Assembly (NCBI GenBank): GCA_001817495.1
Contig: MHIL01000023.1
Coordinates: 1 to 57,335, forward strand
Reading direction: 5' to 3'
DNA: 57,335 bases
DNA from: Candidatus Buchananbacteria bacterium RIFCSPHIGHO2_02_FULL_56_16
GTDB lineage: Bacteria > Patescibacteriota > Patescibacteriia > Buchananbacterales > UBA6539
Both the position numbers and the translations under genes were made by a program. The notes below the pieces were generated by a model. That model saw only the letters and a program-made list of their open reading frames with translations, had not been told where the DNA came from and ran no database searches. Numbering within the stretch: the stretch's first letter is position 1; every line of letters starts with the position of its first letter. Of this stretch, positions 13,262-53,842 are shown piece by piece.

Positions 13262-13292
13262 AAAGCTGCAAGCTTTCCATTACTACTTACAT

Positions 13293-13316
13293 CCCGATGC
13301 ACCCCATCGGGTTTTA
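13293..13316 (+). terminator. Rho-independent terminator after the pilin operon
   Basis: The hairpin cccgatg-caccc-catcggg is followed by TTTT. Confidence 0.6.
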
Positions 13317-13326
13317 TCATGTGTGC

Positions 13327-13355
13327 TTGACGGTTTGCCGCAAGCAGTGTATCAT
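13327..13355 (+). promoter_or_regulatory. Candidate sigma70-type promoter for uvrA
   Basis: TTGACG (13327-13332) is separated by 17 nt from TATCAT (13350-13355). Confidence 0.4.
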
Positions 13356-13372
13356 GTATCCGTTTACAACTG

Positions 13373-16222: not shown

Positions 16223-16250
16223 CTTGGAGAGTCGCGGTGAGCGGTGTATA

Positions 16251-16294
16251 ATTAAGTAAAGTAAGAAGTAAGTAAATTAAGTGAGTAAGTAAAA
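16251..16294. repeat. Stop-codon-rich spacer, word family 2 (AAGTAAGTAAATTAAGT)
   Basis: The 15-mer GTAAGTAAATTAAGT at 16268-16282 is also present at 21263-21277 and 50910-50924. Confidence 0.7.
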
Positions 16295-16296
16295 GC

Positions 16297-16352
16297 GGGT
16301 AGGTTGGAGCCTCTGCTCCAACCGAGCCGAGAGCAGAGGCTCTCGGCTACCC
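16297..16352. repeat. Y-shaped two-hairpin element upstream of leuS
   Basis: The outer stem gggtag/ctaccc encloses gttggagc-ctct-gctccaac and ccgagagc-agag-gctctcgg. The second hairpin is shared with 5557-5579. Confidence 0.55.
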
Positions 16353-16382
16353 GTCTGTAGGTACAATCCATCAAACGTATAT

Positions 16383-18899: not shown

Positions 18900-18913
18900 G
18901 AAATAGCTTTTTA

Positions 18914-18961
18914 GCTTCTTAGCTTTTTAGGGGATGACCCTGCCCTAAAAAGCTAAGAAGC
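18914..18961 (+). terminator. Perfect 19-bp stem hairpin after leuS (word family 3), with no U-tract
   Basis: I checked base by base that gcttcttagctttttaggg (18914-18932) pairs with ccctaaaaagctaagaagc (18943-18961). Confidence 0.5.
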
Positions 18962-18982
18962 CACAAGCTACTTACCTAAACT

Positions 18983-21230: not shown

Positions 21231-21330
21231 GTGAGTAAGTCAAGATAAGTCAAGTAAGTGAAGTAAGTAAATTAAGTAAATTAAGCTGGCAAGCTGGCAA
21301 GCAAACTTGCTCACTTGTAAATTTACTAGC
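21231..21330. repeat. Stop-codon-rich spacer, word family 2
   Basis: It contains aagtaagtaaattaagt at 21261-21277 and the tandem aagctggc-aagctggc, and forms an imperfect inverted repeat (gtgagtaagt / acttgctcac). Confidence 0.6.
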
Positions 21331-21346
21331 TAACAAACTTCTCATA

Positions 21347-23224: not shown

Positions 23225-26200
23225 ATGATACACCAAGTACACCAAGACAAGCAGCGCGAGGCAAACCGCAGGAGCCGGCCGGTGGCGAGGTTCATCCTGT
23301 CGGGTTGCATGTTGCTGACGCTGGCGCTGGGCTTGGTCGCGCCGGCAATGCTCTACCCGACCCCGGCGGCCGCGGCCGGCATACCGACCTTTGACGCCGC
23401 GAACCTTCGAGCGTGGTTTAGCCAAATCGGCTATAACTTCGCTGAACAAGCTGAACGTCTAGCACAGCAGATCGAGAAGCGGACGGCGGCGATTGCTTTC
23501 AAATCAGCCTTACATTTATTCCTCAACAACCTTGCTTACGATTCGGCGACCTGGCTGGCCGCCGGCGGCAAGGGCCAGACCCCGTACTTTCATACTGATA
23601 GCTGGGGAGCGTACCTGACCAAGGCCGCTGACGGCGCGGCCGGTGATTTTATCAGCAAACTCGGTGAATCGTGGCTTGACGGCTTCAACGTCTGCCAGCC
23701 GGATCTGCCGTTTCGGATTAACGTGGCTCAAGGGTTTCAAGACAATTTTATCCGTCGCCAGCCCGACTGTACCGCCAGCGAACTGGCCCGAGACTGGGAG
23801 CGCTTCGTCCAGCGCGACGACTTTCTTAGCCAGTTCGTCAAGCAATTCAATTCGCAGCAGAACGAGGTTCTCATCGGCTTGACGCTTTGGGACAAGTACT
23901 ATCAAGCCCTCTCGTTTGAAACCAAGACTAAAGAGCAGGATCGAATCGAAGGCCAGGGTTTCCAGCCGGTTACGTCGGCGATATCCGGCAAGATTCTTAC
24001 CCCCGCCAGCCTGACCAAAGCCCAGGCGGATGCCTTGATTAACAATCAGGCCGACGCCGAGAAAATCAGCACCGGCGACATCGTGGCTGACGCCATCAGC
24101 ACGTTTATTAATACCTTAGCCGGCAAGCTGTTTCAGCGGCTGTTCAAGGAAGGACTGGCGAGCCTGCGGGATGATGATGATGCTCGGCGAAGTTTCATTA
24201 GCCGTGATCTCTATACCGGTGAGAGCGGCCGCGACCTGTTCACCGGCCGGCAGGCGGCCGAGGCGCGCTACGTAACGCTGGTTGACGCCGGCATCATTAC
24301 CGGCGGGCCGTACGAACTTTTGCAGCAGCTCGCCACCTGCCGGGATTTGAGCAACCCGGGCCCGGAAGAGTGCGTCATTGACCAAAATTTTCGTTTGGCG
24401 ATTGAGCAAGAGATGACGGTTCGGGAGGCGATTGACGCCGGCTACCTGGACGGCAGCGCGCCGTTCGGCTTTATTTCCCCGGGGGTTGCGCCGCCCTACG
24501 CCGGGGACAAGAAGGGCTACCCCTACCGCAGCCTGCTGATTCTGCGGGCCCACCGGATCATCCCGGTTACTTGGGAGGTGGCCGCTAAAATTATTGATGA
24601 GGGATTTACCGGCAGCGACCGGGTCGTGACGCTGAATGCCTTGATTGCCGAGTATGATAACTCGGACAGCCCCTTCTACCGCCTGATTGACCAATACTGG
24701 GTGCTGAAAGCGCCGGAAGCGTTCTGCAAGGCGGAAGGCTACGGGCCGGTCATCATCAGCGATCAGGTCAGCAACGACGGCCAGCGGATCGTGACGCGCA
24801 GCCAGTACTGCGCCGACTACCAGTCGTGCATTGAGAAAGACAGCAAGGGCAAGTGCATCTACGGCTACTGCACCGAGGAACAGCCAACCTGGAACCTCCA
24901 GGCCGAGAGCTGCCTGCCCGAGTACAGCACCTGCCAGACTTTCGTGAACGGCGGCGGCCAGACGGTTTCCTACCTCCAGAATACCCTTAACTACAACAGC
25001 TGCAGCGCGGACAACGCCGGCTGCCAGTGGTACTGCCAGTCGTACAATGTTCCGAGCGCCACCTGGGCTTGCGTTAATGCCGGCGAGCAGGTGCTGAAAC
25101 CGTGCGCCGCGCCCAGCGGCTGCCCGCTCAACGCCGGCTGCAGCATCGCTGAAGCCGGGACATTCTGCACCGACGCGGTCAGTGGCGCGAACCTGACCAT
25201 CAGCACCGCCTGCAGCCCCAGCACCCAGTGGTGGCAAGCCGATCTCTTCGGAACGGGTGTCGGCGGCTGCCAGGCCGGCGCCAGCTGCACCGTCGAGTAC
25301 CAGGGAGTTCAGTGCGTCCAGACCGGCTGCGAGAGCCGCCAGAACCTGCTGCCCAACCCCGGCTTTGAAACCGCCGCCCCGGCCGGCACCCTGGCCGCGA
25401 AGTGGGGCGGGGATCCGGCCTACTTCGAACGGGTGAGCGGCGGGCAGGAGCGGATCCACCGCGGCCGCAGCAGCGTGCGCTTCTACAATGCCGGCAGTAT
25501 GGCCGGCGTAACGATGCGGTCCGATGAGCTGACCGTACCCCGCGCCGGCGCCTACACCGTGAGCGGCTACGTCTTTGACCGGCTGAATGTCGGGTCAATC
25601 TCGTTCAGCGTTTTGGTAAACGGCGGCGCCGTGGCTGACCCGCCGGTCATGCTGACCCAAACCGCCAAGAATCGCTGGTACCAGGTGAGCTTTGATACGC
25701 CGGCGCTGAACGCGAACGACAGGATCAAGATCGTGGTAATCGTCGCCGGCGAGCAGGTCAGCGGCCTGGCCTGGTTCGACGACTTCAGCCTGACCGAGAG
25801 CTGCCTGGTCAATCCGGTGACCCTGACGCTGGCCGGCGCCATCGCCGAAGATGAGAGCAAGATCCACTTCGACCGCGACGCGAAGCAGTGCAGCGCCGAA
25901 GCTGACGGCTGCTCCCAGTTCTACGCTTCGCCGACCCGGCGGATCAGCAACCTCCTGTTTAGCGTTACCGACCCGAGCTTTGAGCTGTACCAAGACAGTA
26001 CCACCCAGCCCGGGGATCAGGATTTCAAGAACTGGACTGCCGTCAGAGCCGTTGTTAAAGCCAGCAGCGATGCTCACAGCGGCGGAGCCGCGATGCAGCT
26101 GCGAGACGACAGTGGCGGCGCCGAAACCTATGTTTCGCTCACGTTTGATACGGGCGAGCCGCTCAACGAGCGGATGTTCATTGTTTCCTACTACGCGAAA

Positions 26201-29200
26201 ACGGTCAACGCTGATGACTTTCAATGTAACGGCAGCGATGAAAATATAGTCCCGCCAAATCTTCGAGGGGGCTGCCATGAGTGGGACAAGAATTACGCTA
26301 ACTTTGTCCGATCGCCTGACGCCGTCGGCGGCAACATCATGATCAACGGTATCAGTTCAGTTGGGCTCAACGACCAGTGGCAGCGGTTCTCGGCGGTCCT
26401 CGCCATCAACGATCCCGTGTTCGACGCCGCTAAAAAACTGGAAATTATTTTGTACACTATTACTCAAGGTACCGGCTCGATCCTCTACGATGACATCCAG
26501 CTCGAGGAGGTTACCGGCAGCGTCCGGACTGAAGCGGTGCCGTTCCAAGGCTACACCACGCTGACGGAAACCCACCTGCGCAAGGCGCCGGACTACCTTG
26601 GCTGCCAGGGCTTCAGCCTGGAACGGCCCAGCGACTATGTGCTCAACGGCGTGACCGAAGCCAGCTGTATCGGTGACACTCTGGTTTGGCGGCCGGAGAG
26701 CTGCGTTGGCGGCTTCTGCTGCCGCCAGATAGACCCGCCCGAGTGCGCCGGCTACGCCCCGTACTGCCAGGCCGACGAGATCGGCTGCCAGTCGTTTACG
26801 CCGCTCCAGGGCGGGCTGCCCGTTCCCGGTGTCGCCGCTGCCGACGACTACTGCGGCGCTGAATGCGTGGGCTACGACGCGTTCAAGCAGGCGCCGACCT
26901 ACTTTGAGCGGACCCAGTCCATCGAATTCTTCATCCCCAAGACCGCGGAACAGTGCAGCCTGGCCCAGGCCGGCTGCGACGAGTTCACCAACCTCGACGA
27001 GGCAGGGGCCGGCGGCGAAGATCGCGAGTACTACCAGTACCTGCGCCAGTGCACCAAACCCGGCGCGGCCGGGGTGAGCTGCGGCACCTTCTACAGCTGG
27101 CAGGGTTCGGACGACAGCGGCTATCAGCTCTCAACCTACAGTTTAAAGACCGCCGGTGCCAGCCCCAACGAGGTCATCGAGTACAATCCGGCCAGCCCCG
27201 ACGAGGTCGCCTACCCTGACGCCTGGTGCGACAACAAATCCGACGGTGATGGCGACGGTTCACCAGACTGCTGCGACGCCTCTGAAGACTTAACCCAGAA
27301 CCCGTTCTGCCGGGAATTCTTCGACCGCGACGGAGGCGTTCACTACGTCCTGGAACAAAACACGATCACCTGTTCAGATGATTGCCACCCCTACCGAAAG
27401 ACCCGCCTCGGAGAAACCGATGCCGAAGCCCAGGCGAACTGTTCGGCCTCGAACCCGGCCTACACGGGAGCGGCACTGAATCCCGGCTGGCAGGACAACG
27501 CCTGCGTCTACTACGCCATCCCCGATCAGGGTGTCGCCTGCCCGGCCCAAGCCGCGGGCTGCCGCGAGTACCGCGGCAACGCCGGCGGCAACGTCTTCAC
27601 CGCGTTTTACGACAGCTTTGAAGACGGCGACAGCCTCGGCTGGCAGACCGGTCAGATGAGCAGCCTGGCGCTCTCGGTCGGCGGCCACTCGATCAAGAGC
27701 CAGTCGGGCACGCTCCAGACCATGGCCGCCTCGATGGGCGCGGCAACCTGCGACGCTGCCCTGACGGTCTGCGACGGAGCAACGTATCCCTGCTACCAAG
27801 CGGCGACGAACACCTGCCTCGCCCAAGAGCCAACCGGCCAGACCTGCGAGGTCGCGCTTGGGACGACTGATTGCGGCGTGTTTGATGCCGCTTTCGCGAG
27901 CGGCCGTGACTACCTGCTCACCTTCTGGGCCCGGAGCGAATCGGGCAATACGCCGGTTACCATGCAGCTTACCGACAGCGCTGGGGCGACGACAATTGCC
28001 CAAGTCGCGCTGACCGCGAACTGGCAGTACTACACGTTCGGGCCGATCCGCTACGACTGGCCGCGCGGCACCAAGCTGGTTGCCCGGAACGCGAATAGCA
28101 AGGACTTCTTCTTCGACAACGTTACCTTCAAGGAGATTACCGGCTACGTCTACGCCATTAAAAATTCCTGGCAGACGCCAACGAGCTGCGACACCAACCC
28201 GTTCGTCAGCCCGGCGGTGCCCGCGCCGCAGTTTATGCTCGGCTGCCAGCAGTACCGGGATTCCAGTAACCAAATCCACAACCTCAAGTCGTTTTCCAGC
28301 CTCTGCCGCGAAGACGCGGTCGGCTGCGAAGCGCTGCTCGACACCTTTAACTCGGACGACCCGTTCGCGAGTGAGTTTAACACCGCCGACGCCGCCGGCA
28401 CGGTGACGGTACCCCAGGATCGGGTGGTTACCATGGTCAACAGCGCCGAGTTCCGCTGCGACTCGACCCAGGAAGGCTGCCAGCGCCTCGGCCGGCCCAG
28501 CCTCGACCAGAGCGGCGCGGTGGCCGGCTACACCGATGCGTACGTCTTGAACGATCCGGATCAGTACCCAACCACGCTCTGCGGCAGCGGCGAAGTGGGC
28601 TGCGCCGAGTTTCAGACCAACCATGGCTTCTTCTACTTCAAAGCGCCCGGGCTGCAGACCTGCGAGTACCGGCAGATTCCCAACCAGCCGGGCGGCTTTG
28701 GCTGGTTTAAGATCGGTTCCGCCTCGGCCACGCCGGACTGCCCGATTACCCGCTCGCCTTTGGGTATCGTCCACCCGGCGACCGGCTGGACCGGGCTGTG
28801 TCCGGCCGGCGCGGCCAGCTGCACCGAGTTCATTGATCCGGTGAGTAACAATGCGAAGAACTTGATTTTTAACGTGGACTTTAAGCAGGATCTCGACCTT
28901 AACGGCAAACCCGACGGCTGGAGCAGTTTGCTCAGCGCGCTGGAGCAAACGATCACCCTGACGCGCAACACCCTCTACACCGTGGCGATCAGCTCGAACG
29001 GCACCGCGCTGGACAGTTCCGATCTTGAGGTACAGATTACCGGCTGCCCGGGTATCACTTCACCCGACCACTCAATGGTCAGCGCCGGCACGGACGCGCT
29101 CCAGCTGCCGGTCTCCGACTTCAAGGGCGACCGGCTGCGCCGGCCCGACCTGCCGGATGAACGGCAGTACTCGGCCCGGTTCTTCGTGCCGGCGGCGGGC

Positions 29201-32200
29201 GGCGGCACCTGTACGCTGCGGCTCAACCCGGGCGGCGCCTCCTCAATCACCAGCCTCTTGCAGGCGGTGGCCGTACGCGAGAGCGGGGTGGACTACGTGC
29301 TCGCAAGCGACGTTAACAAGACCGGCTGCAACGGCATCGTCAACGAGCTCAACGGCTGCGTCTTGTTTAACGACCGCAGCGGTGTCAACTACAAGATCGG
29401 AGAGACCGACAACTCGTACCTCCGCTTCGACGCCGACATGAGCCGGCCGGGCGTCAACAGCAGCGTGCCGGTGGCAAACTGCGGCGGCGCCTGCGACAGC
29501 AGCACCATTTTGAAGGTTCGTCCGGACCGAACCTGCGGCCAGTGGCTCGACTGCCAGACCAAGGTTAAGTCGGTTGACGCGAGCGGCAACGAGGTTACCT
29601 ACTGCGTCGAGCTCGCGGCTTGCGATGAATTGAACGAGTCCGGCGAGTGCACGAACTTCATCTTATCCGACCGCCAGAAGGTTAACGGCTCGAATGACAA
29701 CACCACGGTTGAGTTCCTTAACCACGATAAAATTGCCTACCTCTCGGGCTACGCCAAAGCCGGTTCAACCCTTGCCGACGCAACGGGTGCGCAGGGGGTG
29801 ATACCCGGCGCGGCGTTTGATGCCGCTAACACCTTCAACGGCTACTACCCGTTCAACCTGATGAGCCAGTTCGGCGAGGTGGCGAAGGTGCCGAACGGCA
29901 GCTTTGAGGACTACCCCGAGGTCGAGTACCCGGTTGGTTGGGCCTGGCAGAACGGCGACGGCCGGCGCTGGGGCAGCCACCTCTTCCGGGTGATCTCGAG
30001 CGTGGTTGAGGCCCAGGACAACGAGGGCATCACGCTGCAGGGCCGGGCGTCGCTTAAGCTGAATGCAGACAACGTCGTCATTTCTGATCCGATTTCAGTT
30101 TTACCCAATACCGACTATACCTTGAGCGCCAGTATTAATACGTTAAACCTTCAGCCGACTGAAGCCGAGGCGATTGTTGATCTGGTTGACGCTTCGGGTA
30201 ACCAGCTCGCCCCGCCCGTCGAGCTCCGGCTCAAAGCGCGGCTGGACTGGACCAGCCTTTCGGTGATCGTTAACCGTACCGCCATTACCGGTACCGAAGT
30301 CAGGGTTCGCCTCCGCAACTTCCATCCCAATACCGCACTGATTGCCGAGTCTTCCTACTTTGATAACATCCAGATGCTGCCTACCCTCGAGGTTCAGGCG
30401 CTGCCGCCGTACACCGGCGAGAAGAATTACGTCAGCCGCTCCTGCCGCGTCTTCCCCCAGCAGGACTCGCTGGCCTGCAGCTACCGCGATACGGCCGGCG
30501 CCATCCAGCAGGGCTGGTCCGGCTACTGTTTGGAGCCAGACCCCCAGCGGTCCGGCGTCTGCCTCCAGTGGTGGCCGGTTGACCTGATCAAGGGCGACGC
30601 CTTCGGCACCTACATTGGCTACAACGGCCGGCTGCCGCTCTACTACTGCATGGAGACGAGCATGTCCACGACGCGGATAGAGTTCCTTAAAGAAGGAGAT
30701 ATGACGATCAGTGGTGACTATAATGACGTAACACCAGAGATTGATAAGAACAATTTGGATAAAGATAAATGTATTACGTATAAGAAGCCAAATGGCGGAA
30801 AACTTGAATTTCCCGATGGGTCGAGCGTTACGTTAACCGGCGGAAATAGATGCGGGTCCGACTGGGTGGTCGGCGTCTGTAAGTATGAGGGAGAAAAAAC
30901 CGCTGATATTGATATTTTTCATAAGAACCTCATTGACCGGATTAGGGTCTTTAGCCTTGCAGATGATGGTGACGTTGCCCACAGCATGGAGGGCTGGCTT
31001 GGTTACTGCTTTAACATGTCCGTGGAGGGTAAGGTCGAGTTTTTTGATGTTGAAGCAACTCCTAAATTTGGAGGTACGGTGCCAGTTACCGCCAGTCCAA
31101 ACCAAACTTGGCTCGCGGCCACTAACGGCAAGGTTTGCTCATACGGGGGTAAAGCAATTTTTGACAAGGAAGGATTACTGGATCAGATGTGGTTTTGGAT
31201 CGCCGATCAATCTAGTAAGTGCACCCATAACTTCGAGTGGCAAATTGGGGTTGATGTTCATCTGAATCGGAACTATTGTACGCTGCTGGCTCAAACCGTG
31301 ACGCCTGTCGGTGAGAACAAAGCCTGGGTGTCACGGGTGGCAGAAGGCAGCTCGTACGACGACCTCGAGTGCACGGTTAATGGCACGAAGCCGCTCTTCT
31401 CGATTAACGGTGCCTGCGCGCCGGGAGTTGACTGCGTGTTCGTCAATAGCGAAAAGACGTACCGTTGCGATACCGATGCGAACTTTGACGGTGTACCGGA
31501 TGGAGCACGCTGCAGCGTCTGCGAGTACAACACCGACTACGCGCCGTTCGGCGCCGCGGTACCCGAGGATCCCTACAATATTACCAACTCGGACAAGCTC
31601 TACTGGCAATTGCCGGACACGGAAAACTTTGAGCCGCCCTACCAGGCGCGTATGGGCCAGGTGCCCTACACCTATGGCACGGCGCCCAGCGCCTACAGCA
31701 CCTACCTCAAGCGCCTGTTCGCCCAGAGCTTCAGCTTCTGGAAATGGCAAGAGATTGGGGATCTGGTTTGCCTAGGCGGAACTAATGACGGAAAGGTCTG
31801 CACTGATAGCAGCCCGCAATGTCCCCAAGGTTCATGCATTGATCGTGGCACCCTTTGTCAAGGTAATACCTCAACGCGAGGGGCGGAGTGCAACGTGGCA
31901 GCGTGTGGTTTTGATAGCGGTGGTGTGAGTATCCCCTGCATAGAAGTTAATGACCTAAGTGAGTGCGAGGGTAGTGCCTGTGATAAAGTTTTCGCTTGTG
32001 ACTTCAACGCTAACGGCAGTTGGGATGTTGGCACAGATAAGCGCTGTTGTCCCGTGTCTGTTGCCGGTGGTCCGGATCCAACTTGTGAACAGAAGTATAG
32101 CTGTTCAGATGATAGTTTGAATGCGGGGCAAGAGTGTACGTTCAATGCTGATGAGTGTCCGGGTGGCACCTGCGCGCAGCAGCGTCAGGGTTTCCAGCCG

Positions 32201-33133
32201 GACTTAAGAGTCACTTGTCCAGCAGGAATTCTCTGCTTGCAGGTCACAGGAACTGATGAGTTCCGCTGCGGCGGCACTTCCGGCGGCGCGCTTTGCAGCC
32301 CTTTCCGCTGGAGTCCGCCTGACCGGTTGTGTGAGACGCTGACTGGTCTGAATGACAATAGCCGGCCGACAACGTTGAATTTCAGTACCGATGCCGACTA
32401 CTGCGCCATCGCGCCGCTGGTTAAAAACATCCTGATTAACGGCCAGAACGGAACCGCTGCGCCGCTCAAAATTATTAACCAGCGCGGTTCCGGCTCGGCG
32501 ACCCTGCTGTTTAACGCGGTGCTTGACGGCAACCAGCTGCCGCTGACCGCCTACCAGGTTGACTGGGGCGATGGCTCCAAGGTGGCGGTGTCCGGCACCA
32601 ACCTGCGCGACCGCTCGAACACCGTGGCGCCTTACAAGCTGACCCACTCCTACAGCTACTACGAAATTTTATCCCAGAATCAGAGCGGCGACCGGATCTA
32701 CTGTTCGGCCGTGCTTGGCGATGTGCCAGCTGGGGTGCTGCCTAAAGGCTTTTGCTCCGGCGGTCCAACGCCCGGCGCCAGCTGCGAGAATTCGACGCAG
32801 TGTTCGCCGGGCGGCGTCTGTAACCTCACTTGGTGCGCGGTCAAGCCGCGGATTCAGATTCAGGACAACTGGGGCTGGTGCAACGGCAGCATTGATCCGG
32901 GCAGCGGCGTGCTCCTGGGGCCGCAGTGGGGCTATCGCGTCGGCAGCGGAGCGCCCAACTGCAGCAGCGACGGCAGCGGCGTCTGTGCCGGAGGTACCGC
33001 GCCCGGTAGTGCATGTACGACGGTAGCGCCGTGCGCTGGCGGCGGGGTCTGCCAGCTCGATAACGCTGACGCCTGGACGACGTTTGGCGGTGCGAGCGCG
33101 AGCGGCTACGTCATTGTCGGGATCAACGATTAG
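23225..33133 (+). CDS. Giant (3302 aa) Cys-rich extracellular protein with an N-terminal signal-anchor; putative adhesin or pilus-tip protein
   Basis: It is a single uninterrupted ORF with genome-typical codon bias. It has an N-terminal TM segment, several jelly-roll/CBM-like domain starts (NLLPNPGFE, VPNGSFEDY), a PKD-like YQVDWGDGS motif, a recurrent GC-x-(E/Q)-(F/Y) motif and C-terminal C-x-GG-x-PG-x-C knots. Confidence 0.85.
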   Translation: MIHQVHQDKQREANRRSRPVARFILSGCMLLTLALGLVAPAMLYPTPAAAAGIPTFDAANLRAWFSQIGYNFAEQAERLAQQIEKRTAAIAFKSALHLFLNNLAYDSATWLAAGGKGQTPYFHTDSWGAYLTKAADGAAGDFISKLGESWLDGFNVCQPDLPFRINVAQGFQDNFIRRQPDCTASELARDWERFVQRDDFLSQFVKQFNSQQNEVLIGLTLWDKYYQALSFETKTKEQDRIEGQGFQPVTSAISGKILTPASLTKAQADALINNQADAEKISTGDIVADAISTFINTLAGKLFQRLFKEGLASLRDDDDARRSFISRDLYTGESGRDLFTGRQAAEARYVTLVDAGIITGGPYELLQQLATCRDLSNPGPEECVIDQNFRLAIEQEMTVREAIDAGYLDGSAPFGFISPGVAPPYAGDKKGYPYRSLLILRAHRIIPVTWEVAAKIIDEGFTGSDRVVTLNALIAEYDNSDSPFYRLIDQYWVLKAPEAFCKAEGYGPVIISDQVSNDGQRIVTRSQYCADYQSCIEKDSKGKCIYGYCTEEQPTWNLQAESCLPEYSTCQTFVNGGGQTVSYLQNTLNYNSCSADNAGCQWYCQSYNVPSATWACVNAGEQVLKPCAAPSGCPLNAGCSIAEAGTFCTDAVSGANLTISTACSPSTQWWQADLFGTGVGGCQAGASCTVEYQGVQCVQTGCESRQNLLPNPGFETAAPAGTLAAKWGGDPAYFERVSGGQERIHRGRSSVRFYNAGSMAGVTMRSDELTVPRAGAYTVSGYVFDRLNVGSISFSVLVNGGAVADPPVMLTQTAKNRWYQVSFDTPALNANDRIKIVVIVAGEQVSGLAWFDDFSLTESCLVNPVTLTLAGAIAEDESKIHFDRDAKQCSAEADGCSQFYASPTRRISNLLFSVTDPSFELYQDSTTQPGDQDFKNWTAVRAVVKASSDAHSGGAAMQLRDDSGGAETYVSLTFDTGEPLNERMFIVSYYAKTVNADDFQCNGSDENIVPPNLRGGCHEWDKNYANFVRSPDAVGGNIMINGISSVGLNDQWQRFSAVLAINDPVFDAAKKLEIILYTITQGTGSILYDDIQLEEVTGSVRTEAVPFQGYTTLTETHLRKAPDYLGCQGFSLERPSDYVLNGVTEASCIGDTLVWRPESCVGGFCCRQIDPPECAGYAPYCQADEIGCQSFTPLQGGLPVPGVAAADDYCGAECVGYDAFKQAPTYFERTQSIEFFIPKTAEQCSLAQAGCDEFTNLDEAGAGGEDREYYQYLRQCTKPGAAGVSCGTFYSWQGSDDSGYQLSTYSLKTAGASPNEVIEYNPASPDEVAYPDAWCDNKSDGDGDGSPDCCDASEDLTQNPFCREFFDRDGGVHYVLEQNTITCSDDCHPYRKTRLGETDAEAQANCSASNPAYTGAALNPGWQDNACVYYAIPDQGVACPAQAAGCREYRGNAGGNVFTAFYDSFEDGDSLGWQTGQMSSLALSVGGHSIKSQSGTLQTMAASMGAATCDAALTVCDGATYPCYQAATNTCLAQEPTGQTCEVALGTTDCGVFDAAFASGRDYLLTFWARSESGNTPVTMQLTDSAGATTIAQVALTANWQYYTFGPIRYDWPRGTKLVARNANSKDFFFDNVTFKEITGYVYAIKNSWQTPTSCDTNPFVSPAVPAPQFMLGCQQYRDSSNQIHNLKSFSSLCREDAVGCEALLDTFNSDDPFASEFNTADAAGTVTVPQDRVVTMVNSAEFRCDSTQEGCQRLGRPSLDQSGAVAGYTDAYVLNDPDQYPTTLCGSGEVGCAEFQTNHGFFYFKAPGLQTCEYRQIPNQPGGFGWFKIGSASATPDCPITRSPLGIVHPATGWTGLCPAGAASCTEFIDPVSNNAKNLIFNVDFKQDLDLNGKPDGWSSLLSALEQTITLTRNTLYTVAISSNGTALDSSDLEVQITGCPGITSPDHSMVSAGTDALQLPVSDFKGDRLRRPDLPDERQYSARFFVPAAGGGTCTLRLNPGGASSITSLLQAVAVRESGVDYVLASDVNKTGCNGIVNELNGCVLFNDRSGVNYKIGETDNSYLRFDADMSRPGVNSSVPVANCGGACDSSTILKVRPDRTCGQWLDCQTKVKSVDASGNEVTYCVELAACDELNESGECTNFILSDRQKVNGSNDNTTVEFLNHDKIAYLSGYAKAGSTLADATGAQGVIPGAAFDAANTFNGYYPFNLMSQFGEVAKVPNGSFEDYPEVEYPVGWAWQNGDGRRWGSHLFRVISSVVEAQDNEGITLQGRASLKLNADNVVISDPISVLPNTDYTLSASINTLNLQPTEAEAIVDLVDASGNQLAPPVELRLKARLDWTSLSVIVNRTAITGTEVRVRLRNFHPNTALIAESSYFDNIQMLPTLEVQALPPYTGEKNYVSRSCRVFPQQDSLACSYRDTAGAIQQGWSGYCLEPDPQRSGVCLQWWPVDLIKGDAFGTYIGYNGRLPLYYCMETSMSTTRIEFLKEGDMTISGDYNDVTPEIDKNNLDKDKCITYKKPNGGKLEFPDGSSVTLTGGNRCGSDWVVGVCKYEGEKTADIDIFHKNLIDRIRVFSLADDGDVAHSMEGWLGYCFNMSVEGKVEFFDVEATPKFGGTVPVTASPNQTWLAATNGKVCSYGGKAIFDKEGLLDQMWFWIADQSSKCTHNFEWQIGVDVHLNRNYCTLLAQTVTPVGENKAWVSRVAEGSSYDDLECTVNGTKPLFSINGACAPGVDCVFVNSEKTYRCDTDANFDGVPDGARCSVCEYNTDYAPFGAAVPEDPYNITNSDKLYWQLPDTENFEPPYQARMGQVPYTYGTAPSAYSTYLKRLFAQSFSFWKWQEIGDLVCLGGTNDGKVCTDSSPQCPQGSCIDRGTLCQGNTSTRGAECNVAACGFDSGGVSIPCIEVNDLSECEGSACDKVFACDFNANGSWDVGTDKRCCPVSVAGGPDPTCEQKYSCSDDSLNAGQECTFNADECPGGTCAQQRQGFQPDLRVTCPAGILCLQVTGTDEFRCGGTSGGALCSPFRWSPPDRLCETLTGLNDNSRPTTLNFSTDADYCAIAPLVKNILINGQNGTAAPLKIINQRGSGSATLLFNAVLDGNQLPLTAYQVDWGDGSKVAVSGTNLRDRSNTVAPYKLTHSYSYYEILSQNQSGDRIYCSAVLGDVPAGVLPKGFCSGGPTPGASCENSTQCSPGGVCNLTWCAVKPRIQIQDNWGWCNGSIDPGSGVLLGPQWGYRVGSGAPNCSSDGSGVCAGGTAPGSACTTVAPCAGGGVCQLDNADAWTTFGGASASGYVIVGIND

Positions 33134-33155
33134 TACGAGCAAGAAGAATTTCTTA

Positions 33156-33640
33156 AGTACCCCGTTCTTGGGGTAAGAGGGGGAACTAAGGTTAAAATGA
33201 TCGGGCCCGCTACGCCAACGCGTTAGCGTGGCGAGGGAGTTACGAGAATAGGTCAAAGCCGTAACCCCTTCTAACTTCCCCTTAACGTAAGGGGAAGGAT
33301 ACTTGGGCAGCGCTTTATGCTTATTCGCAGCATTTGCCTTGACAAGAAGAACATCGTAAGCACCCCCCTCTTGGGTTAAGAGGGGGAGCTAAGGTGAGAT
33401 TAAGTGGGCCCGCTACGCCAACGCGTTAGCGTGGCGAGGGAGTTACGAGTAATGCTGAAGCCTGCCCGCGCGCGGCGCGCAGGCGGGCCGTAACCCCTTC
33501 CCCGCCTCGACTCGCCTTCGGTAAAGCCACGGCGAGGCGGGTAACTTCCCCTTAACGTAAGGGGAAGGATACCAGGTAAGAGCTTTATGCTTATCTGCCT
33601 GAGCGTTGCACGCAGACAGGTTCGCAGCATTCGCATGAGT
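33156..33640. repeat. Two tandem copies of a structured intergenic module of about 200-280 nt (candidate ncRNA or MITE pair)
   Basis: Copy 1 is about 33156-33348 and copy 2 about 33357-33640. They share identical blocks of 44 nt (33203-33246 = 33407-33450) and 31 nt (taacttccccttaacgtaaggggaaggatac). Copy 2 differs by three inserted hairpins. Confidence 0.75.
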
Positions 33641-33678
33641 TCGCATCATTAGCATCGCGTATTGAAAAAAAGATTACG

Positions 33679-38456: not shown

Positions 38457-39707
38457 ATGATTGACAATCGTTTAGAAAAAATAAAAAAAATCACGCCAGA
38501 CCAGTTAGAGACGGCCGATATTTTGGATTTGTTAAAACTTTTAACCAGTGGGTACTTGGACGGTTTTCAAGTTGGCGAAGCCAAGGAACTTTGGTGGGCA
38601 TTAAGTCGGCTGATCACTGGTCTTCAAGCTAAAACCATAAGTCAAAAAACAATGAACCAAGTTAATCGCTTGATGGTTGACTTAGGTTGGTTGGCTTTGC
38701 CTTTTTTACCGGATTCGGCAGTTGAAAATTTATTTAAGGCTGATTTATTAAGAGCCCTTAGCCTTGAAATTGACGTCTTGGCAAAAATAAAAACTTTTTT
38801 TAGTTTTTCTTACGGTAATTTTAATTTACTGGAACAGCAGCGTCGGCTGATGATTAGCGCGCTTAAAATAAATGAAGAATTAATTGGCGATCGGGCAATA
38901 AAAATTTCCGACGTCGGTGAAGAAGTGGCGCCGGCGATTAAAAATTGGTTAAAGGATTATGATCAGTCCAGTAACGTCAATCAGCGCTCAAGGCGCTTAA
39001 ATCTAGTTGAGTATATTAACACTAATAATAATGTTCGTCAGCTGTCAGCTGAGCAAAAGGAAACATTGCGCCGGGTTTTGCAAGTTTATGATTTTGTCCG
39101 ATTTTTAAACCAGCTAGAAAGTGTTAGTGAAACCGGCCACAAAATTCCAGCGGAAAAAGTAACTGTTTTGGACCGAGAGGACCTGGCATCATCACCGGTC
39201 GAAGACGAATCATCTAAAGAGCAGCAAGAAATTTTTCAGGCTTATCAAGGTGATCAAAAACGGGCCAAGGCAATCGACCGCGAGCAGGCAAAGCTGGCCA
39301 AAAAAATCAGCGGCAAGGTTGACCAGCTCCCCGCCATTTTTTACCAGGCGGTTCAGACCAAAAACGTTGCCGCCACCGTCGCCGCGCTGCGGCTGATGGC
39401 CGAAACTGACACGCTGGGAAACTTTTTGCAAACCGATGAGAAGCTCAAGCAATTTTTGAGCCTGACCTGGGAAAAACAGTATGGTAAGGCGACGGCCGAG
39501 GCGTTTAAGCGCAACCCGAATCAGCCGAAGTTCGTCAGGCTATTCTTACAGTACGTTTTGCAGCAGCGGCTGGGTTTGGACAGCAGCGAAGCGGCGCGGC
39601 TGGGGCTGCACATCGGCAATATATTTGTCAAGAGTGGCAAAAAAGAGTATAATAGGCTGGCGTACTTTGACGTGAAGAGCAAGCAGTTTAGGTGGTTTGA
39701 AGGCTAG
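38457..39707 (+). CDS. Hypothetical protein (416 aa), AT-richer than its surroundings
   Basis: It is a long ORF with coherent codon usage and a helical, Lys/Glu-rich sequence. I recognised no motif. Confidence 0.6.
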   Translation: MIDNRLEKIKKITPDQLETADILDLLKLLTSGYLDGFQVGEAKELWWALSRLITGLQAKTISQKTMNQVNRLMVDLGWLALPFLPDSAVENLFKADLLRALSLEIDVLAKIKTFFSFSYGNFNLLEQQRRLMISALKINEELIGDRAIKISDVGEEVAPAIKNWLKDYDQSSNVNQRSRRLNLVEYINTNNNVRQLSAEQKETLRRVLQVYDFVRFLNQLESVSETGHKIPAEKVTVLDREDLASSPVEDESSKEQQEIFQAYQGDQKRAKAIDREQAKLAKKISGKVDQLPAIFYQAVQTKNVAATVAALRLMAETDTLGNFLQTDEKLKQFLSLTWEKQYGKATAEAFKRNPNQPKFVRLFLQYVLQQRLGLDSSEAARLGLHIGNIFVKSGKKEYNRLAYFDVKSKQFRWFEG

Positions 39708-39719
39708 GCCAAGCGTATC

Positions 39720-39754
39720 AGGAATTAGGAATTAGGTTGTAGCTTGTAGTTCTT
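39720..39754. repeat. Left arm of the inverted repeat bracketing the four-helix-bundle gene
   Basis: The reverse complement of aggaattaggaattaggttgtagcttgtagttctt matches 40160-40194, apart from a 7-nt indel and one mismatch. Confidence 0.75.
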
Positions 39755-39798
39755 TAGTAACAATCAACATGGCGCCATTCATTATTAATACTGTTACT

Positions 39799-40161
39799 AT
39801 GGCGCAAGTTGTGAGTTACCGAGATCTCACCGTTTGGCAGCGGTCAATGGAGCTCGTTGTTGCTATTTATACCTTAACTGACCAGTTGCCCGACGCCGAA
39901 AAATATGGGTTAACTGCTCAAATGAGACGTGCCGCTATTTCAATCCCTTCAAACATAGCCGAAGGGAGACGGCGGAGCAGCCGGAAAGATTTTCGTCAGT
40001 TTCTCATTATCGCATACGGTTCAGGTGCAGAACTCGAAACTCAAATTGAAATTGCCAAGAGATTATCATTTATTCAAGCTGAAAATTCTAAAAAGTCAGA
40101 GCTGCTACTTGGGGAAGTGATGAGAATGCTCAATAAATTGCAATCAATTCTGAAAAGCTAA
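39799..40161 (+). CDS. Four-helix-bundle protein of the 23S rRNA intervening-sequence (IVS) protein family
   Basis: It has the hallmark sequence YRDL.VWQ....L...IY.LT..LP..EKYGL..QMRRAA.SI..NIAEG..R.S.K.F..FL.IA.GS..E..T. Confidence 0.85.
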   Translation: MAQVVSYRDLTVWQRSMELVVAIYTLTDQLPDAEKYGLTAQMRRAAISIPSNIAEGRRRSSRKDFRQFLIIAYGSGAELETQIEIAKRLSFIQAENSKKSELLLGEVMRMLNKLQSILKS

Positions 40162-40254
40162 GAACTACAACCTAATTCCTAACTCCTAACTCCTAACTCC
40201 TAACTCCTAACTCCTAACTCCTAACTCCTAACTCCTAACTCCTAACTCCTAACT
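40160..40254. repeat. Right arm of the inverted repeat, followed by a (TAACTCC)x10 perfect heptamer microsatellite just upstream of metK
   Basis: The arm is aagaactacaacctaattcc. Ten perfect TAACTCC units span 40180-40249, followed by a partial unit. The metK ATG is at 40259. Confidence 0.9.
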
Positions 40255-40258
40255 AAAC

Positions 40259-41425
40259 ATGCCCAAACGCTACATCTTCACCTCCGAGTCGGTAACCGAG
40301 GGCCATCCCGACAAAATTTGCGATCAGATTTCTGACGCTATCTTAGATGAATTGATAAAGCAGGATCCCCACTCGCACGCGGGCATCGAGACGCTGGTGA
40401 CTACCGGATTGGTCGTGGTTGCCGGTGAAATCAGAACTAAGGGGTACGTTGATATCGCCGCGGTCGTCCGCAAGACGATCAGAGAAATCGGCTACGATGA
40501 CCACGCCATCGGCTTCCACTGGGAGGATTGCGGGGTGATGGTGGCGATTGACGAGCAGAGCCCGGACATCGCGCAGGGCGTTGACGCCGGTCGCGGTAAG
40601 TTTAAAAAACAGGGCGCCGGCGACCAGGGGTTGATGTTCGGCTACGCGACGCGCGAAACGCCCGAGCTGATGCCGCTGCCGATCATGCTGGCTCATAAGC
40701 TGACCCACCGGCTGGCTCAGCTGCGCAAGAATAAGACGATGCCGTACCTGCGGCCGGACGGCAAAGCCGAAGTGGCGGTCGAGTACCTCGGCGGCAAGCC
40801 GCGGCGGGTTGACACGGTTGTCATCGCCGCCAGCCACGGCGAGCACGTGCACGAGCAGCGGGTGGAGCGCGACGTCATCAATAAGGTGATTAAGCCGATC
40901 TGCAAGCGCTACCTCGACGGCAAGACGCGGTTCTTCGTCAACGCTACCGGCCGGTTCGTCAAGTGCGGCCCGCCTTCGGACGCGGGGCTGACCGGCCGAA
41001 AAATTATCGTTGACACCTACGGCGGCCAGGGCAGCCACGGCGGCGGCGCGTTCTCCGGCAAAGATCCTTCCAAGGTTGACCGGTCGGCGTCATACATGGC
41101 GCGCTATGTCGCCAAGAACATCGTGGCGGCCGGACTGGCCGACCGTTGCGAGCTGCAGGTGGCGTACGTGATTGGCGTCGCCGAACCGATCAGCATTCTG
41201 GTTGACACGTTTGGTACCGGAACGATCAGCGAAGAGCGAATCGTCAGCCTGGTGAAAAAGCACTTTCCGCTGACGCCGCAGGGAATCATAACGCACCTCA
41301 AGCTGCTGCGGCCAATCTACCGCGCCACCGCCGCCTATGGCCACTTCGGCCGGAGCGGATTTAGCTGGGAGCAGACGGACATGGCAGCGAAGTTACGGCG
41401 CGCAGCCGGGTTGAAATCCCAATAA
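40259..41425 (+). CDS. metK: S-adenosylmethionine synthase
   Basis: It has [28 protein letters not shown] and other canonical MAT motifs. Confidence 0.97.
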
Positions 41426-41435
41426 CCAAATTGAA

Positions 41436-41477
41436 AGCTTATAGCTTATAGCTTATAGCTTATAGCTGATAGTTGTT
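41436..41477. repeat. (AGCTTAT)x4 heptamer tandem repeat plus two degenerate units (word family 3)
   Basis: agcttat is repeated at 41436, 41443, 41450 and 41457, followed by agctgat and agttgtt. Confidence 0.85.
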
Positions 41478-41568
41478 AGAGGCTGCGGTACTAAAGCAAC
41501 CTTCTATACCCTAAAAGCTAACAGCTAAAAGCTGATCTATGATTTAGTGCTTAGAATTTATCACTGCT

Positions 41569-42870
41569 ATGGCCGCTGATCAGCCAAATAAAAACGACGA
41601 ATTTTTTCAGCTCCTAGCCGCCGAGCCCGGCGGGCCGGGCGGTACCGCTGTCCGGAATCCGTTTAATGATGACGAGATTGTCTTTCGGGATGAACGCGGC
41701 GAAATTAAGGTGCTCAAGGGAAAACAGGTAACGCCGTTAGCTCGGGCCGGCGTCCAGCGGCGGGAATCAACCGGTCCGGCGGTTGAGCCGGCTTCACCGC
41801 CCCCCGAACCGCTTCCGGCAGCGCCGCCGCCAGCGACCGCCGGCCTGCCGTCGCCGAGCGCGTCGATTGCTCAAGCCGCGACGCGTCACCGGCAGGCTAT
41901 TGCCGACACCGTGGAGTCAATCACCGCCAGCCATCAGCTCAAAAAAACTTTTGCCGAAGCAGCGCTCGAGAAACGATTTAAAAATCTAATCCTCTCGATG
42001 CTGACCGGCGTGCGTAACGCCGTCGAGACGAGGGAGATGCTCACCCGGCCAGTGGCGGAAGGCGGCCTGGAATTTAGCCAGCCGGAAGCGGCAGACGTGC
42101 TGGCGGCTATTGATCAAGCGAACCGTTCAATCACCGGTCAGGCTCACCACCAGCCGCCACCGGCGTTGAGCCTTGAAGGTCAGCAGCTGTTGAGCGATAC
42201 CGCCGCACCGGCTCCGCCCACGCTCACCTTCACCGACCCGCTACGCCCGCGTAGCGTGGCGAGCCCGATCCTCACATCGGCTGTCGCTCCGTCATCCTCG
42301 CCGCTGCCGCCGGTTGCCCCGCCAAATCCGATAGCGCCGCCCCGCCCCGTGAAGGCGTTTCAAGAGCCGCCGGCTCCGGTGGTTGCCGTCCGGCCCAGGC
42401 CAGCGGCCGCTGCCGAGACGCCAATTGGTCGTCAGACGGTTCAACCGGCGGAAGGCTCGCCACGCTTCGGCGGCGAAGCGGGCTCGCCACGCTTCGGTGG
42501 CGAAGCGGGCAGACCGAAGATCGAGGATGTAAAGTTTAAGCCAAAATCAATGGGTCCGGTCGAGGAGATTGGCGCGCTCACGGCGCTCGATTTCCGCCGG
42601 CTCGGCGCCAACCCGAACGAGGCGGGTCTGGCGATTATGGAAAAAATTGAGCAGCTGGAGCAGGAGTCGTTTAGCCAGCGGATCGCGGCGATTAGGGCCT
42701 GGCAGGACAGCCCCGTCTACCGGCTGTACCTCGAGCTCGGCGGCGCGAGCATGGAAGAGAAGAAGCCGGTCGCGACCGTCATCGCCGAACGGCAGGCGGC
42801 GCGCACGCCAACGCTGACCGAACCGGAGTTTGAGGCGATTTCGGATTTAAACCAGAAGCTAAGACATTAG
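41569..42870 (+). CDS. Pro/Ala-rich hypothetical protein (433 aa) carrying three copies of the palindromic element
   Basis: It is a long ORF with a disordered Pro-rich middle and a conserved-looking helical C-terminus. It is bracketed by a perfect 19-bp inverted repeat. Confidence 0.65.
   Translation: MAADQPNKNDEFFQLLAAEPGGPGGTAVRNPFNDDEIVFRDERGEIKVLKGKQVTPLARAGVQRRESTGPAVEPASPPPEPLPAAPPPATAGLPSPSASIAQAATRHRQAIADTVESITASHQLKKTFAEAALEKRFKNLILSMLTGVRNAVETREMLTRPVAEGGLEFSQPEAADVLAAIDQANRSITGQAHHQPPPALSLEGQQLLSDTAAPAPPTLTFTDPLRPRSVASPILTSAVAPSSSPLPPVAPPNPIAPPRPVKAFQEPPAPVVAVRPRPAAAAETPIGRQTVQPAEGSPRFGGEAGSPRFGGEAGRPKIEDVKFKPKSMGPVEEIGALTALDFRRLGANPNEAGLAIMEKIEQLEQESFSQRIAAIRAWQDSPVYRLYLELGGASMEEKKPVATVIAERQAARTPTLTEPEFEAISDLNQKLRH
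42237..42265. repeat. Inverted-orientation copy of the in-frame palindromic element with compensatory stem changes
   Basis: The sequence is cccgctacgcccgcgtagcgtggcgagcc. Its stem is cgctacg/cgtagcg instead of cgcttcg/cgaagcg, and it is read as [10 protein letters not shown]. Confidence 0.8.
42454..42510. repeat. Two tandem copies (27-nt period) of the in-frame palindromic element
   Basis: The sequence is ggctcgccacgcttcg-gcgg-cgaagcgggctcgccacgcttcg-gtgg-cgaagcgggc, read as GSPRFGGEAGSPRFGGEAG. Confidence 0.9.
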
Positions 42871-43094
42871 TTTAGAAATTCTAAGCACTAAATCCTAGAA
42901 CGAGCTGTTAGCTTCATTGAGGAGTTAGGAATTAGCTTTTTAGCTTCCGAGTTGCCGAGACTTACCGTTTCCTCAAAAGCTACAAGCTAAGAAGCTACTT
43001 CCTAAAAATCTAACAGCCGCTAAAAGCTATAAGCTATCTTTGGTCATTTGGATTTATGTAGAGTTGAGAGCTTAGGATTTAGGATTTTGATAAA

Positions 43095-46158: not shown

Positions 46159-46171
46159 CAGCCAAGTTCTG

Positions 46172-46247
46172 CTGACTACTGACTACTGACTACAGACTAC
46201 AGACTACTTACTACTACTTACTACTACTTACTACTACTTACTACGGT
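46172..46247. repeat. One-armed tandem arrays of family-1 words: (TGACTAC)x3, (AGACTAC)x2, (TTACTACTAC)x3.7
   Basis: I read these directly. The complement 11-mer ctactgactac occurs at 46176 and 46183. Confidence 0.85.
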
Positions 46248-46254
46248 CTAACCT

Positions 46255-46830: not shown

Positions 46831-46860
46831 TAAGTTAGTAAAGTAAGCAAGACAAGGAGG

Positions 46861-46886
46861 TAAGTAAAGTAAGCTTACTTTACTTA
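46861..46886. repeat. Perfect 26-nt palindrome (word family 2)
   Basis: I checked taagtaaagtaagcttactttactta pair by pair. Confidence 0.9.
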
Positions 46887-46960
46887 ATTTACTTACTCGC
46901 TTACACGCTTGTTCAATTAAAGCTCAACGTAGCGCCAGCGTAGATTCGTAACCTGACGCT

Positions 46961-50883: not shown

Positions 50884-50910
50884 AGGCAAAATTAACAGCA
50901 GGTAAGCTGG

Positions 50911-50961
50911 TAAGTAAATTAAGTAAAGTAAGTGGATAGGCTCATGGGCTTAATTTACTTA
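50911..50961. terminator. Hairpin (word family 2) between convergent recG and the L,D-transpeptidase gene
   Basis: The 13-bp stem pairs taagtaaattaag (50911-50923) with cttaatttactta (50949-50961). Confidence 0.5.
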
Positions 50962-50987
50962 TCTTGCTTACTTCACTTACCTACTTC

Positions 50988-53752: not shown

Positions 53753-53762
53753 AGAATAGCGG

Positions 53763-53842
53763 GGTCAGTAAGTAGTAAGTAGCCGGTAGTCAGTAGGGCT
53801 CCGTTGAGTCTCTACTGACTACTCACTACCGACTACTGACTA
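53763..53842. repeat. Intergenic hairpin, word family 1
   Basis: gtagtcagtag (53786-53796) pairs with ctactgactac (53812-53822). The loop and right arm are homologous to 3275-3312. Confidence 0.7.

Follow-up and report, generated by a model that had tools for sequence, protein, structure and literature searches.

The four-helix-bundle locus beside metK

The window, by which we mean the whole stretch of 57,335 nucleotides analyzed here, comes from Candidatus Buchananbacteria, which belongs to the Candidate Phyla Radiation (CPR). It carries a small gene for a four-helix-bundle (4HB) protein in the loop of a long inverted repeat, a unit that we call the cassette. The features of the locus are as follows.

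38457..39707, + strand: upstream gene for a 416-aa protein without family, in a T4SS-like row
39625..39653, + strand: promoter-like site (TTGTCA, 17 nt, TATAAT) with 11/12 consensus matches, in the 3' end of the upstream gene
39720..39757, + strand: left (5') stem arm, G/T-rich; (AGGAATT)x2.4 at 39720-39736, then GTTGTAG-CTTGTAG-TTCTTTAG
39772..39805, + strand: leader hairpin of a predicted fold, GCGCCAU (39772-39778) with AUGGCGC (39799-39805)
39799..40161, + strand: 4HB gene, PF05635 / TIGR02436, 120 aa, by profile matches and the motif RRAAISIPSNIAEG
40150..40187, + strand: right (3') stem arm, C/A-rich, CTGAAAAGCTAAGAACTACAACCTAATTCCTAACTCCT; covers the last three codons of the ORF and its stop
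40171..40254, + strand: tandem array (CCTAACT)x12, TRF score 161, 98% matches
40259..41425, + strand: metK (S-adenosylmethionine synthetase), downstream gene, by profile match

The T4SS-like row around the cassette includes a weak TrbL-like match, PrgI and a TraG/VirB4-like ATPase; the initial annotation had placed the cassette between T4SS-associated genes and metK. The cassette is co-oriented with both neighbours and lies about 50-100 nt from each.

The protein belongs to the family named from intervening sequences (IVS) of 23S rRNA, as had been proposed from the sequence of the ORF. It matches PF05635 over profile positions 1-106 of 106 (E = 2.6e-39; 134.1 bits, cut-off 33.8) and TIGR02436 (126.9 bits, cut-off 24), and its product name in the NCBI record is 'four helix bundle protein'. 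Homology to PDB 2GSC (XCC0516) extends over residues 8-114 (E = 2.3e-28), where RRAAISIPSNIAEG aligns with RRAAVSIPSNIAEG of 2GSC and the conserved R-x3-S-x3-N-x2-E(G) is present. The leading G of the published family motif, GxxRxxxSxxxNxxE (PMC3936711), is Q both in the window protein and in XCC0516. We regard 39799 as the conserved start because, in place of the in-frame ATG that precedes it at 39769, relatives have ATA. The protein gave weak matches to the Avd profiles PF22296 and NF033474, but its identity as Avd was rejected, since NF033474 scored 26.5 bits against a cut-off of 80 and neither neighbour matches reverse transcriptase. A role as a defence-system component was likewise rejected, as PADLOC returned no match, and the protein carries no known nuclease or transposase motif. 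XCC0516 and Avd have been described as pentameric four-helix-bundle assemblies, and our best guess, by analogy with them, is that the window protein is also a nucleic-acid-binding pentamer.

The inverted repeat that had been noticed around the ORF, with its right arm overlapping the stop codon, was recovered by repeat search in two registers, 39720-39757 with 40150-40187 (38 nt, 82% complementary) and 39720-39754 with 40160-40194 (35 nt, 83% complementary). In the left arm, a TTGTAGC/TTGTAGT pair follows the AGGAATT units. On the right, the TAA stop of the ORF (40159-40161) is inside the arm, which is prolonged by the CCTAACT array up to 4 nt 5' of the metK start; TAA stops occur in this array in every forward frame, and the opposite strand has TAG stops. 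Most of the right array is without pairing partner, because at 84 nt it is far longer than the left one. Besides those at 39720-39736 and 40171-40254, TRF detected period-7 arrays in many other window spacers. No direct repeats bracket the arms, and neither a transposase nor a recombinase was seen at the cassette. In agreement with the initial annotation, there is no rRNA in the 57-kb window, where Rfam found three tRNAs only; the cassette itself has no Rfam match, either at gathering score or at E <= 1. The unit had also been described as richer in AT than the flanking genes, which holds against metK (43% GC in the 4HB ORF vs 61%) but not against the upstream gene (44%); the window as a whole has 58%.

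As a control for chance, we took a gapped local score between the upstream spacer and the reverse complement of the downstream spacer. The score is 41, while mononucleotide shuffles gave 13.6 +/- 2.4 with a maximum of 24. Comparison of spacers with one another is a harder null, because the window spacers are built of heptamer-like words, and here the pair flanking the 4HB ORF ranks only 10th of the 231 spacer pairs within the window, with another adjacent pair scoring higher (54). At a score of 28 or more, 2 of 35 window genes are bracketed. Most window spacers hold hairpins with short loops and arms of heptamer words (GTAGTCA, GTAAGTA and AGCTTTT families), without any ORF. The two spacers beside the 4HB gene differ from them in having no partner arm of their own (self-scores of 24 and 9 vs 32-74 for other repeat-bearing spacers) and pair with each other. 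The arm word AGGAATTAGG, with one mismatch at most, has 17 matches in the window where 2.3 would be expected; 13 lie within the cassette arms. Arms of this style are thus widespread in the genome, but the sequence of these particular arms is almost confined to the cassette. The alternative raised together with the initial annotation, of ordinary spacer words present at every intergenic region, is not borne out for this arm word.

Heptamer arrays around PF05635 genes in other bacteria

To see the locus in the context of its family, we surveyed 80 fetched loci with relatives of the protein (46-68% identity) from species-representative genomes. They cover CPR groups, Bacteroidota, Clostridia, Acidobacteriota, Planctomycetota, Gammaproteobacteria and others, and cultured isolates are included. 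The inverted-repeat score compared 150 nt upstream of each gene with the reverse complement of the region -25..+150 around its stop. For the 4HB genes (n = 79) the median was 33, with 66% at 30 or more and 30% at 40 or more; one third of the family members score below 30. For control genes of the same loci (n = 364) the median was 17, with 3% at 30 or more (Mann-Whitney p = 6.6e-37), and none of the shuffles reached 30. Among the few control genes with high scores, one is a second 4HB paralog. Relatives of the gene do carry flanking inverted repeats, and the proposal of an IVS-like unit of stem and ORF, outside rRNA and in a protein-coding gene row, is supported for the window locus and extends to much of the family.

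With few exceptions the arms consist of tandem repeats with a unit of about 7 nt, in some cases 8 nt, whose sequence varies by locus (GGTGGAC, TTTCTGG, TCGTATG, AGTTCAC, TTAGTGG and others). Of 81 loci, TRF found 65 with arrays upstream of the gene and 67 with arrays downstream, 55 having them on both sides; the periods were 7/14/21 and 8/16, and array density was 6.0 per kb beside the 4HB gene vs 0.76 per kb elsewhere in the loci (about eightfold). The median left arm extends from -57 to -18 relative to the ATG and the median right arm from +2 to +42 past the stop. G makes up 30% of the upstream arrays and C 11%, whereas the downstream arrays have 10% G and 30% C; therefore the gene sits in one split hairpin, not between two. 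A universal heptamer was looked for and rejected, since the commonest unit, of the AGGAATT type, was found in only 6 of 82 loci. An asymmetry of array length between left and right was rejected as well (median 31 nt on each side). Arm 9-mers show a small excess in the rest of the same locus, 3.8 vs 2.7 per kb.

With regard to the genomic setting, all 81 loci examined lie among predicted ORFs, 72 of them with ORFs on both sides. The statement that such genes are classically found in 23S IVS is thus right historically but does not describe these loci. Both neighbours are co-oriented with the gene in 58 of 72 cases (81%), against 252 of 409 (62%) for other genes (Fisher p = 0.002), and the median spacers beside 4HB genes are about 50 nt. 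In our full-text literature search, PF05635 was not linked with flanking heptamer arrays, apart from the Coxiella IVS, and the rule that the PF05635 gene is nested in inverted heptamer arrays across the family appears to be undescribed. The same packaging in many phyla suggests a self-contained stem-plus-gene cassette that would be excised at the RNA level.

Xanthomonas offered a prediction that we set beforehand, namely that the gene of XCC0516, the structural archetype of the family, is flanked by arrays of the heptamer GGGAATC. Repeats of this heptamer occur in Xanthomonas at about 186 sites, including 70 convergent pairs (Rehm et al., PMC4692102). In X. campestris and the X. citri group, the gene of an 86%-identical XCC0516 ortholog is placed between accB and accC, with GGGAATCGGGAGTGGAGAATCGGGAATCGG upstream and CCCATTCCCCATTCTCGACTCCCTATTCCC downstream, just 5' of the accC ATG. 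The prediction held. By hand alignment GGGAATCGGGAGTGGAGAATCGGGAATCGG and CCCATTCCCCATTCTCGACTCCCTATTCCC are complementary at 26 of 30 positions, and the repeat search recovered weaker ungapped registers, in L105 only. From our reading of the frame, the annotated GTG start of XCC0516 is apparently within the left array. The literature search found no link between the gene context of XCC0516 and the GGGAATC repeats of PMC4692102.

History of the slot and candidate RNA processing

The slot has the order large TrbL-like gene, 416-437-aa gene, 4HB gene, metK, hypothetical gene and PrgI, and two further lineages, L017 and L114, have a 4HB gene at the same place (70% and 71% identity), so that the gene is retained here in three lineages. 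Between L017 and the window, the flanking hypothetical proteins are 34-36% identical (36% for the upstream 416-aa protein) and MetK is 82% identical. For the 4HB ORF and its L017 ortholog, dN is 0.19 and dS is at least 1.4 (saturated), giving a dN/dS of about 0.14; therefore the ORF is an old one, inherited vertically and subject to purifying selection. The arms of the slot orthologs differ in sequence and are complementary within each locus, and by eye they share a core of GTAGCTT, one variable base, then TAG.

Two relatives have an orthologous upstream protein and no 4HB gene in the slot. In L099 (94% for the upstream protein) the right arm is still present, with 2 heptamers only, and an unrelated structured repeat replaces the left part of the cassette; clean excision boundaries, which the initial annotation had suggested looking for in relatives, were thus rejected. 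L100 (48% for the upstream protein) has a small GIY-YIG gene instead. Outside this slot, an arm core AGGAATTAGGNNGTAG is found directly upstream of 4HB genes at CorA|CysRS in another organism (L106-L113) and upstream of a 4HB gene in a Selenomonadales MAG (L083), and nowhere away from 4HB slots in 124 fetched loci (about 1 Mb). Identical proteins (P0002, P0031, P0055, P0009) have the same neighbours in every case. The copy number of CCTAACT is equal (11 full units) in every complete read-through assembly of the population, and an array copy-number polymorphism was rejected, because in L001 and L107-L110 the array only looks different in length owing to N gaps in the scaffolds. A 48-nt difference between L011 and L012 is suggested by gene coordinates alone.

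A transposable element, either IS or MITE, was considered and does not fit, since there is no target-site duplication, no transposase and no identical copies in different contexts. Neither a transposition event nor a target duplication or recombinase was found at the slot or in the relatives examined. Concerning the phrase 'transposed or retained' in the initial annotation, these comparisons favour long retention at the slot, as in L017 and L114, with loss in a near relative; no recent movement was seen. As read from these loci, the cassette is gained and lost over long times, and its arms go with the gene.

At the RNA level, the MFE fold of 39712-40205 has a 34-bp stem that encloses the whole ORF, with 39720-39757 pairing to 40150-40187 and four 1x1 mismatches (-141.9 kcal/mol, z -3.9, 0 of 100 shuffles as good). 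No terminator-like site is present in 39300-40500. This fact, together with the co-orientation and the spacing of about 50-100 nt, makes it most likely that the cassette is transcribed with its host row, and such co-transcription is plausible. A promoter consensus scan found 2 sites vs 1.2 expected, so they are promoter-like by consensus alone. A transcript from the site at 39625..39653 would include both arms and the ORF. The leader hairpin pairs the whole start codon and is predicted in the window, L017 and L011 (z -2.7 to -3.6); a conserved box AATCAACAT[A/G]GCGCCA before it occurs only in the subclade of the window, L011/L019, L017 and L025. These predictions give hints of translational control in this subclade. 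On the other hand, a strand-specific RNA signature was not borne out: among 52 arm pairs, mismatches were of the G.U type in 44 cases, of the A.C type in 56 and other in 131. With no excess of G.U, pairing at the DNA level fits as well as pairing in RNA. The stem also need not serve the gene, because short-loop hairpins of the same style sit in other spacers without an ORF.

Our preferred reading, which we hold at somewhat better than even odds (about 0.55), is an IVS-type cassette between cistrons, that is, a selected PF05635 gene in the loop of an inverted-heptamer stem that would be cut by RNase III. A transcript of the host row, from the T4SS-like genes to metK, would carry the cassette, and the arms would pair in it to give the predicted 34-bp duplex. 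RNase III would then cut this duplex, as in the 23S IVS with the same gene; by this analogy the cassette is probably processed by RNase III. Cleavage would set the small mRNA free and break the host RNA where this does no harm, either in the gap between two cistrons or at an rRNA helix tip. A harmless cut of this kind would explain why the family is found in both places. Slippage probably lets the arrays lengthen and shorten, with the arms staying complementary.

Three other explanations have to be weighed against this reading. It is unlikely, in our estimate, that the 4HB gene and its leader entered the loop of a pre-existing REP- or terminator-like hairpin of heptamer words at the DNA level, with a stem that serves the host. 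The many short-loop hairpins of the window spacers are consistent with this idea, as are the two 4HB-flanking spacers that pair only mutually, the right arm retained in ORF-less L099 and the GIY-YIG gene of L100, which points to a slot tolerating different inserts; rRNA IVSs likewise sit at helix tips. Such an insertion does not readily account for arrays that follow the 4HB gene across many phyla (66% vs 3% of other genes), for the recurrence of AGGAATTAGGNNGTAG at other 4HB slots and nowhere else, or for an arm word largely confined to the cassette, and there was no sign of a recombinase, a target duplication or a clean empty site. Chance, in the sense that similar low-complexity words occur in both orientations in all spacers, would fit the modest rank of the pair within the window and the higher score of another adjacent pair. 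We consider it highly improbable, as few window genes are bracketed, the family contrast is strong, the Xanthomonas prediction held, and the arms are polarised around the gene, G-rich and then C-rich.

Rather unlikely as well is a cognate protein-repeat system analogous to REPIN-RAYT, in which a 4HB pentamer would bind the arrays beside its own gene, either for autoregulation or with this gene serving as a 'master copy', and would act in trans on the dispersed hairpins. The Xanthomonas arms are indeed the genome's own dispersed repeat, L093 has two 4HB paralogs on a single contig with a different heptamer at each, the arm motif recurs across phyla despite the saturated dS of the ORF, and the homologs XCC0516 and Avd are pentameric by description. 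Moreover, arrays of 7n period away from the gene number 6.8 per 50 kb in loci with a 4HB gene vs 1 in a single 50-kb stretch of E. coli, which is a weak control. These points are offset by the variety of heptamers over the loci, by the only slight enrichment of arm 9-mers in the same locus, by other hairpin families of the window (GTAGTCA, GTAAGTA) that are unlike the cassette arms, and by a protein without nuclease or transposase motif and without PADLOC match.

Relation to known repeats and intervening sequences

The function of rRNA intervening sequences and of the S23p ORFs in them is still described as unclear, decades after they were discovered (PMC4990558), and the excess of heptanucleotide repeats in some bacteria as without known role (PMC4692102). 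Our comparison ties the two questions, since the heptamer stem belongs to the gene wherever it is located. It also explains a small gene wedged in operons, as at cmr3|cmr2, accB|accC and NIF3|ruvA and beside metK. Xanthomonas, which is cultured and genetically tractable and has a solved protein structure, makes the question directly testable.

Dispersed heptanucleotide tandem repeats include the STRR sequences of cyanobacteria. Others are GGGAATC in Xanthomonas and GGGGAYT in Nostoc (PMC4692102) and TAACTGA in Beggiatoaceae (PMC4679880). Like the cassette arms, dispersed heptamer repeats lie between genes as arrays of 7-nt units, and they often form convergent inverted pairs in which the G-rich strand comes first. 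Both papers treat the arrays as orphan repeats, and a four-helix-bundle gene is mentioned in neither. One may speculate, and we find it distinctly doubtful, that PF05635 proteins are the missing partner of the heptanucleotide repeats in cyanobacteria, of the Xanthomonas GGGAATC repeat and of the CPR hairpins, binding or maintaining their duplexes; the array-flanked gene would then be the master unit and the rRNA IVS the same unit landed in rRNA. If this were true, gene and arrays would form a widespread, RNase III-excised, intron-like cassette for any highly transcribed RNA.

In REPIN-RAYT systems, a single gene is flanked by inverted repeat copies that are also dispersed genome-wide as spacer hairpins. 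RAYT is a HUH tyrosine transposase, whereas the 4HB protein has no such motif, and REPs are fixed palindromes, whereas the cassette arms are tandem heptamers. Avd of diversity-generating retroelements has a related four-helix-bundle fold, but it adjoins a reverse transcriptase, while the cassette adjoins the 416-aa protein without family and metK. The gene of XCC0516 in X. campestris lies, as judged from the ortholog, between two co-oriented housekeeping genes and within inverted heptamer arrays; its heptamer is of the GGGAATC type, unlike that of the cassette.

Finally, the 23S IVS with an S23p ORF, known from Leptospira and Coxiella burnetii, shares its protein family with the cassette. In the Coxiella IVS, a terminal stem of 28 bp is combined with 2-3 GACAGAT heptamers in tandem ahead of the S23p ATG; the copy number of GACAGAT varies between strains, and RNase III cuts in vitro within the stem, where the first repeat begins (Warrier et al., PMC4990558). 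The authors regard S23p as probably not expressed after processing, and the ORF is reported as decaying (PMC4990558). IVS and cassette are alike in having an ORF in the loop of a stem of about 28-34 bp from terminal inverted repeats, in carrying heptamers directly before the start (GACAGAT in Coxiella, AGGAATT and TTGTAGY in the cassette) and in a total size of about 430-540 nt. They differ in the host, which is helix 25 or 45 of 23S rRNA for the IVS vs a protein-coding gene row for the cassette, in the cleavage by RNase III, seen in vitro for Coxiella and inferred for the cassette, and in the ORF, which is under purifying selection in the cassette vs reported decay in Coxiella. Judged by its sequence, the cassette, which is not in rRNA, falls outside the literal definition of an rRNA IVS and shares every testable sequence feature of one.

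Heptamer hairpins and bracketed genes in the window

Hairpins whose arms consist of tandem heptamer-like words (GTAGTCA, GTAAGTA and AGCTTTT families) occur in most spacers of the window, with the G-rich arm first and with short loops, and no T-run was found 3' of these spacer hairpins. The spacer at 46159-46254 carries a C-type array alone, without a partner nearby.

Hairpin-bearing spacers of the window
3218-3372
13151-13372
16223-16382
18900-18982
21254-21346
46831-46960
50884-50987
53753-53839

Among the 35 window genes scored, only one is bracketed besides the four-helix-bundle (4HB) gene, namely the second gene downstream of it, which is GC-rich, belongs to no family and encodes a 433-aa proline-rich protein (41569-42870). 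It is enclosed by an inverted repeat of 24 nt (41536-41559 / 42876-42899, 96% complementary), one arm lying just 5' of the ATG and the other just 3' of the stop codon, and AGCTTAT arrays are located outside this repeat (41433-41472 / 43019-43038). The ortholog of this gene (34% identity) in L017, a locus with a 4HB ortholog in the same slot, is without such a bracketing inverted repeat. The 433-aa gene also contains 2.1 tandem copies of a 27-nt unit (96% matches), and this repeat forms an inverted pair (31 nt, 87% complementary; window 42237-42267 and 42454-42510) with a segment lying some 200 nt upstream of it.

Leader box and arrays at other 4HB loci

Downstream of a conserved leader box, AATCAACAT[A/G]GCGCCA, about 20 nt of AT-rich sequence lead to ATGGCGCAA. 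GCGCCA is predicted to pair with UGGCGC and would thus sequester the start codon. The box is limited to one subclade of the 4HB family, in which the proteins begin with MAQ.

Leader region
39766-39805, window
2964-3008, L017
2964-3008, L011 (another fetched locus)
L025, a further fetched locus

At L106 (CorA, 4HB gene, CysRS), both arms are duplicated (1400-1500 and 1860-1950): the upstream unit AGGAATTAGGTGGTAGGGATAAAAA is present twice and the downstream unit of 43 nt two or three times. The arm words are about the same as those of the window, despite that the ORFs are only 66% identical and dS is saturated. In the scaffolded assemblies of the same locus (L107-L110), the downstream spacer contains runs of N, presumably because of duplicated repeats of the L106 type. 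L093 harbors two 4HB paralogs 1.7 kb apart (2915-3265 and 4995-5363), each with its own distinct flanking heptamer array, of the GTGATTG/GAAATTG type for one and the CAAGATG/CAAGAAT type for the other.

The slot upstream of metK and a structured repeat

In L100, a relative with 48% identity, the slot between a 418-aa gene and metK is occupied by a 98-aa ORF (4841-5137), which we read by eye from its sequence as GIY-YIG-type, and which is surrounded by other repeats (TTGTCATCC... units, twice). The slot upstream of metK seems to collect small insert genes. In L099, a near relative, the slot missing the 4HB gene is filled by a structured repeat (3535-3690) of a kind (about 150-270 nt) that is also present in the window as two tandem copies (33150-33660), 5' of the TrbL-like gene. 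Its cores are CCCC.TCTTGGGGTAAGAGGGGG, GGGAGTTACGA...GCCGTAACCCC and CTTCCCCTTAACGTAAGGGGAAG. The repeat from the window or L099 gave no match in Rfam and may represent either a MITE or a small RNA. Immediately upstream of the window copies and the TrbL-like gene lies a 3302-aa ORF (23225-33133), for which Pfam gave no match at E <= 0.001.

The start codon of XCC0516

The protein of PDB 2GSC, XCC0516, the structural archetype of the 4HB family, has 128 aa and requires 11 residues ahead of ERLD. By our reading of the frame, the start that matches 2GSC at the Xanthomonas campestris locus (L101, 1431-1500) would be a GTG within the GGGAATC-type array. Gene callers choose an ATG that lies 57 nt downstream of this GTG, which leaves a protein of 109 aa.
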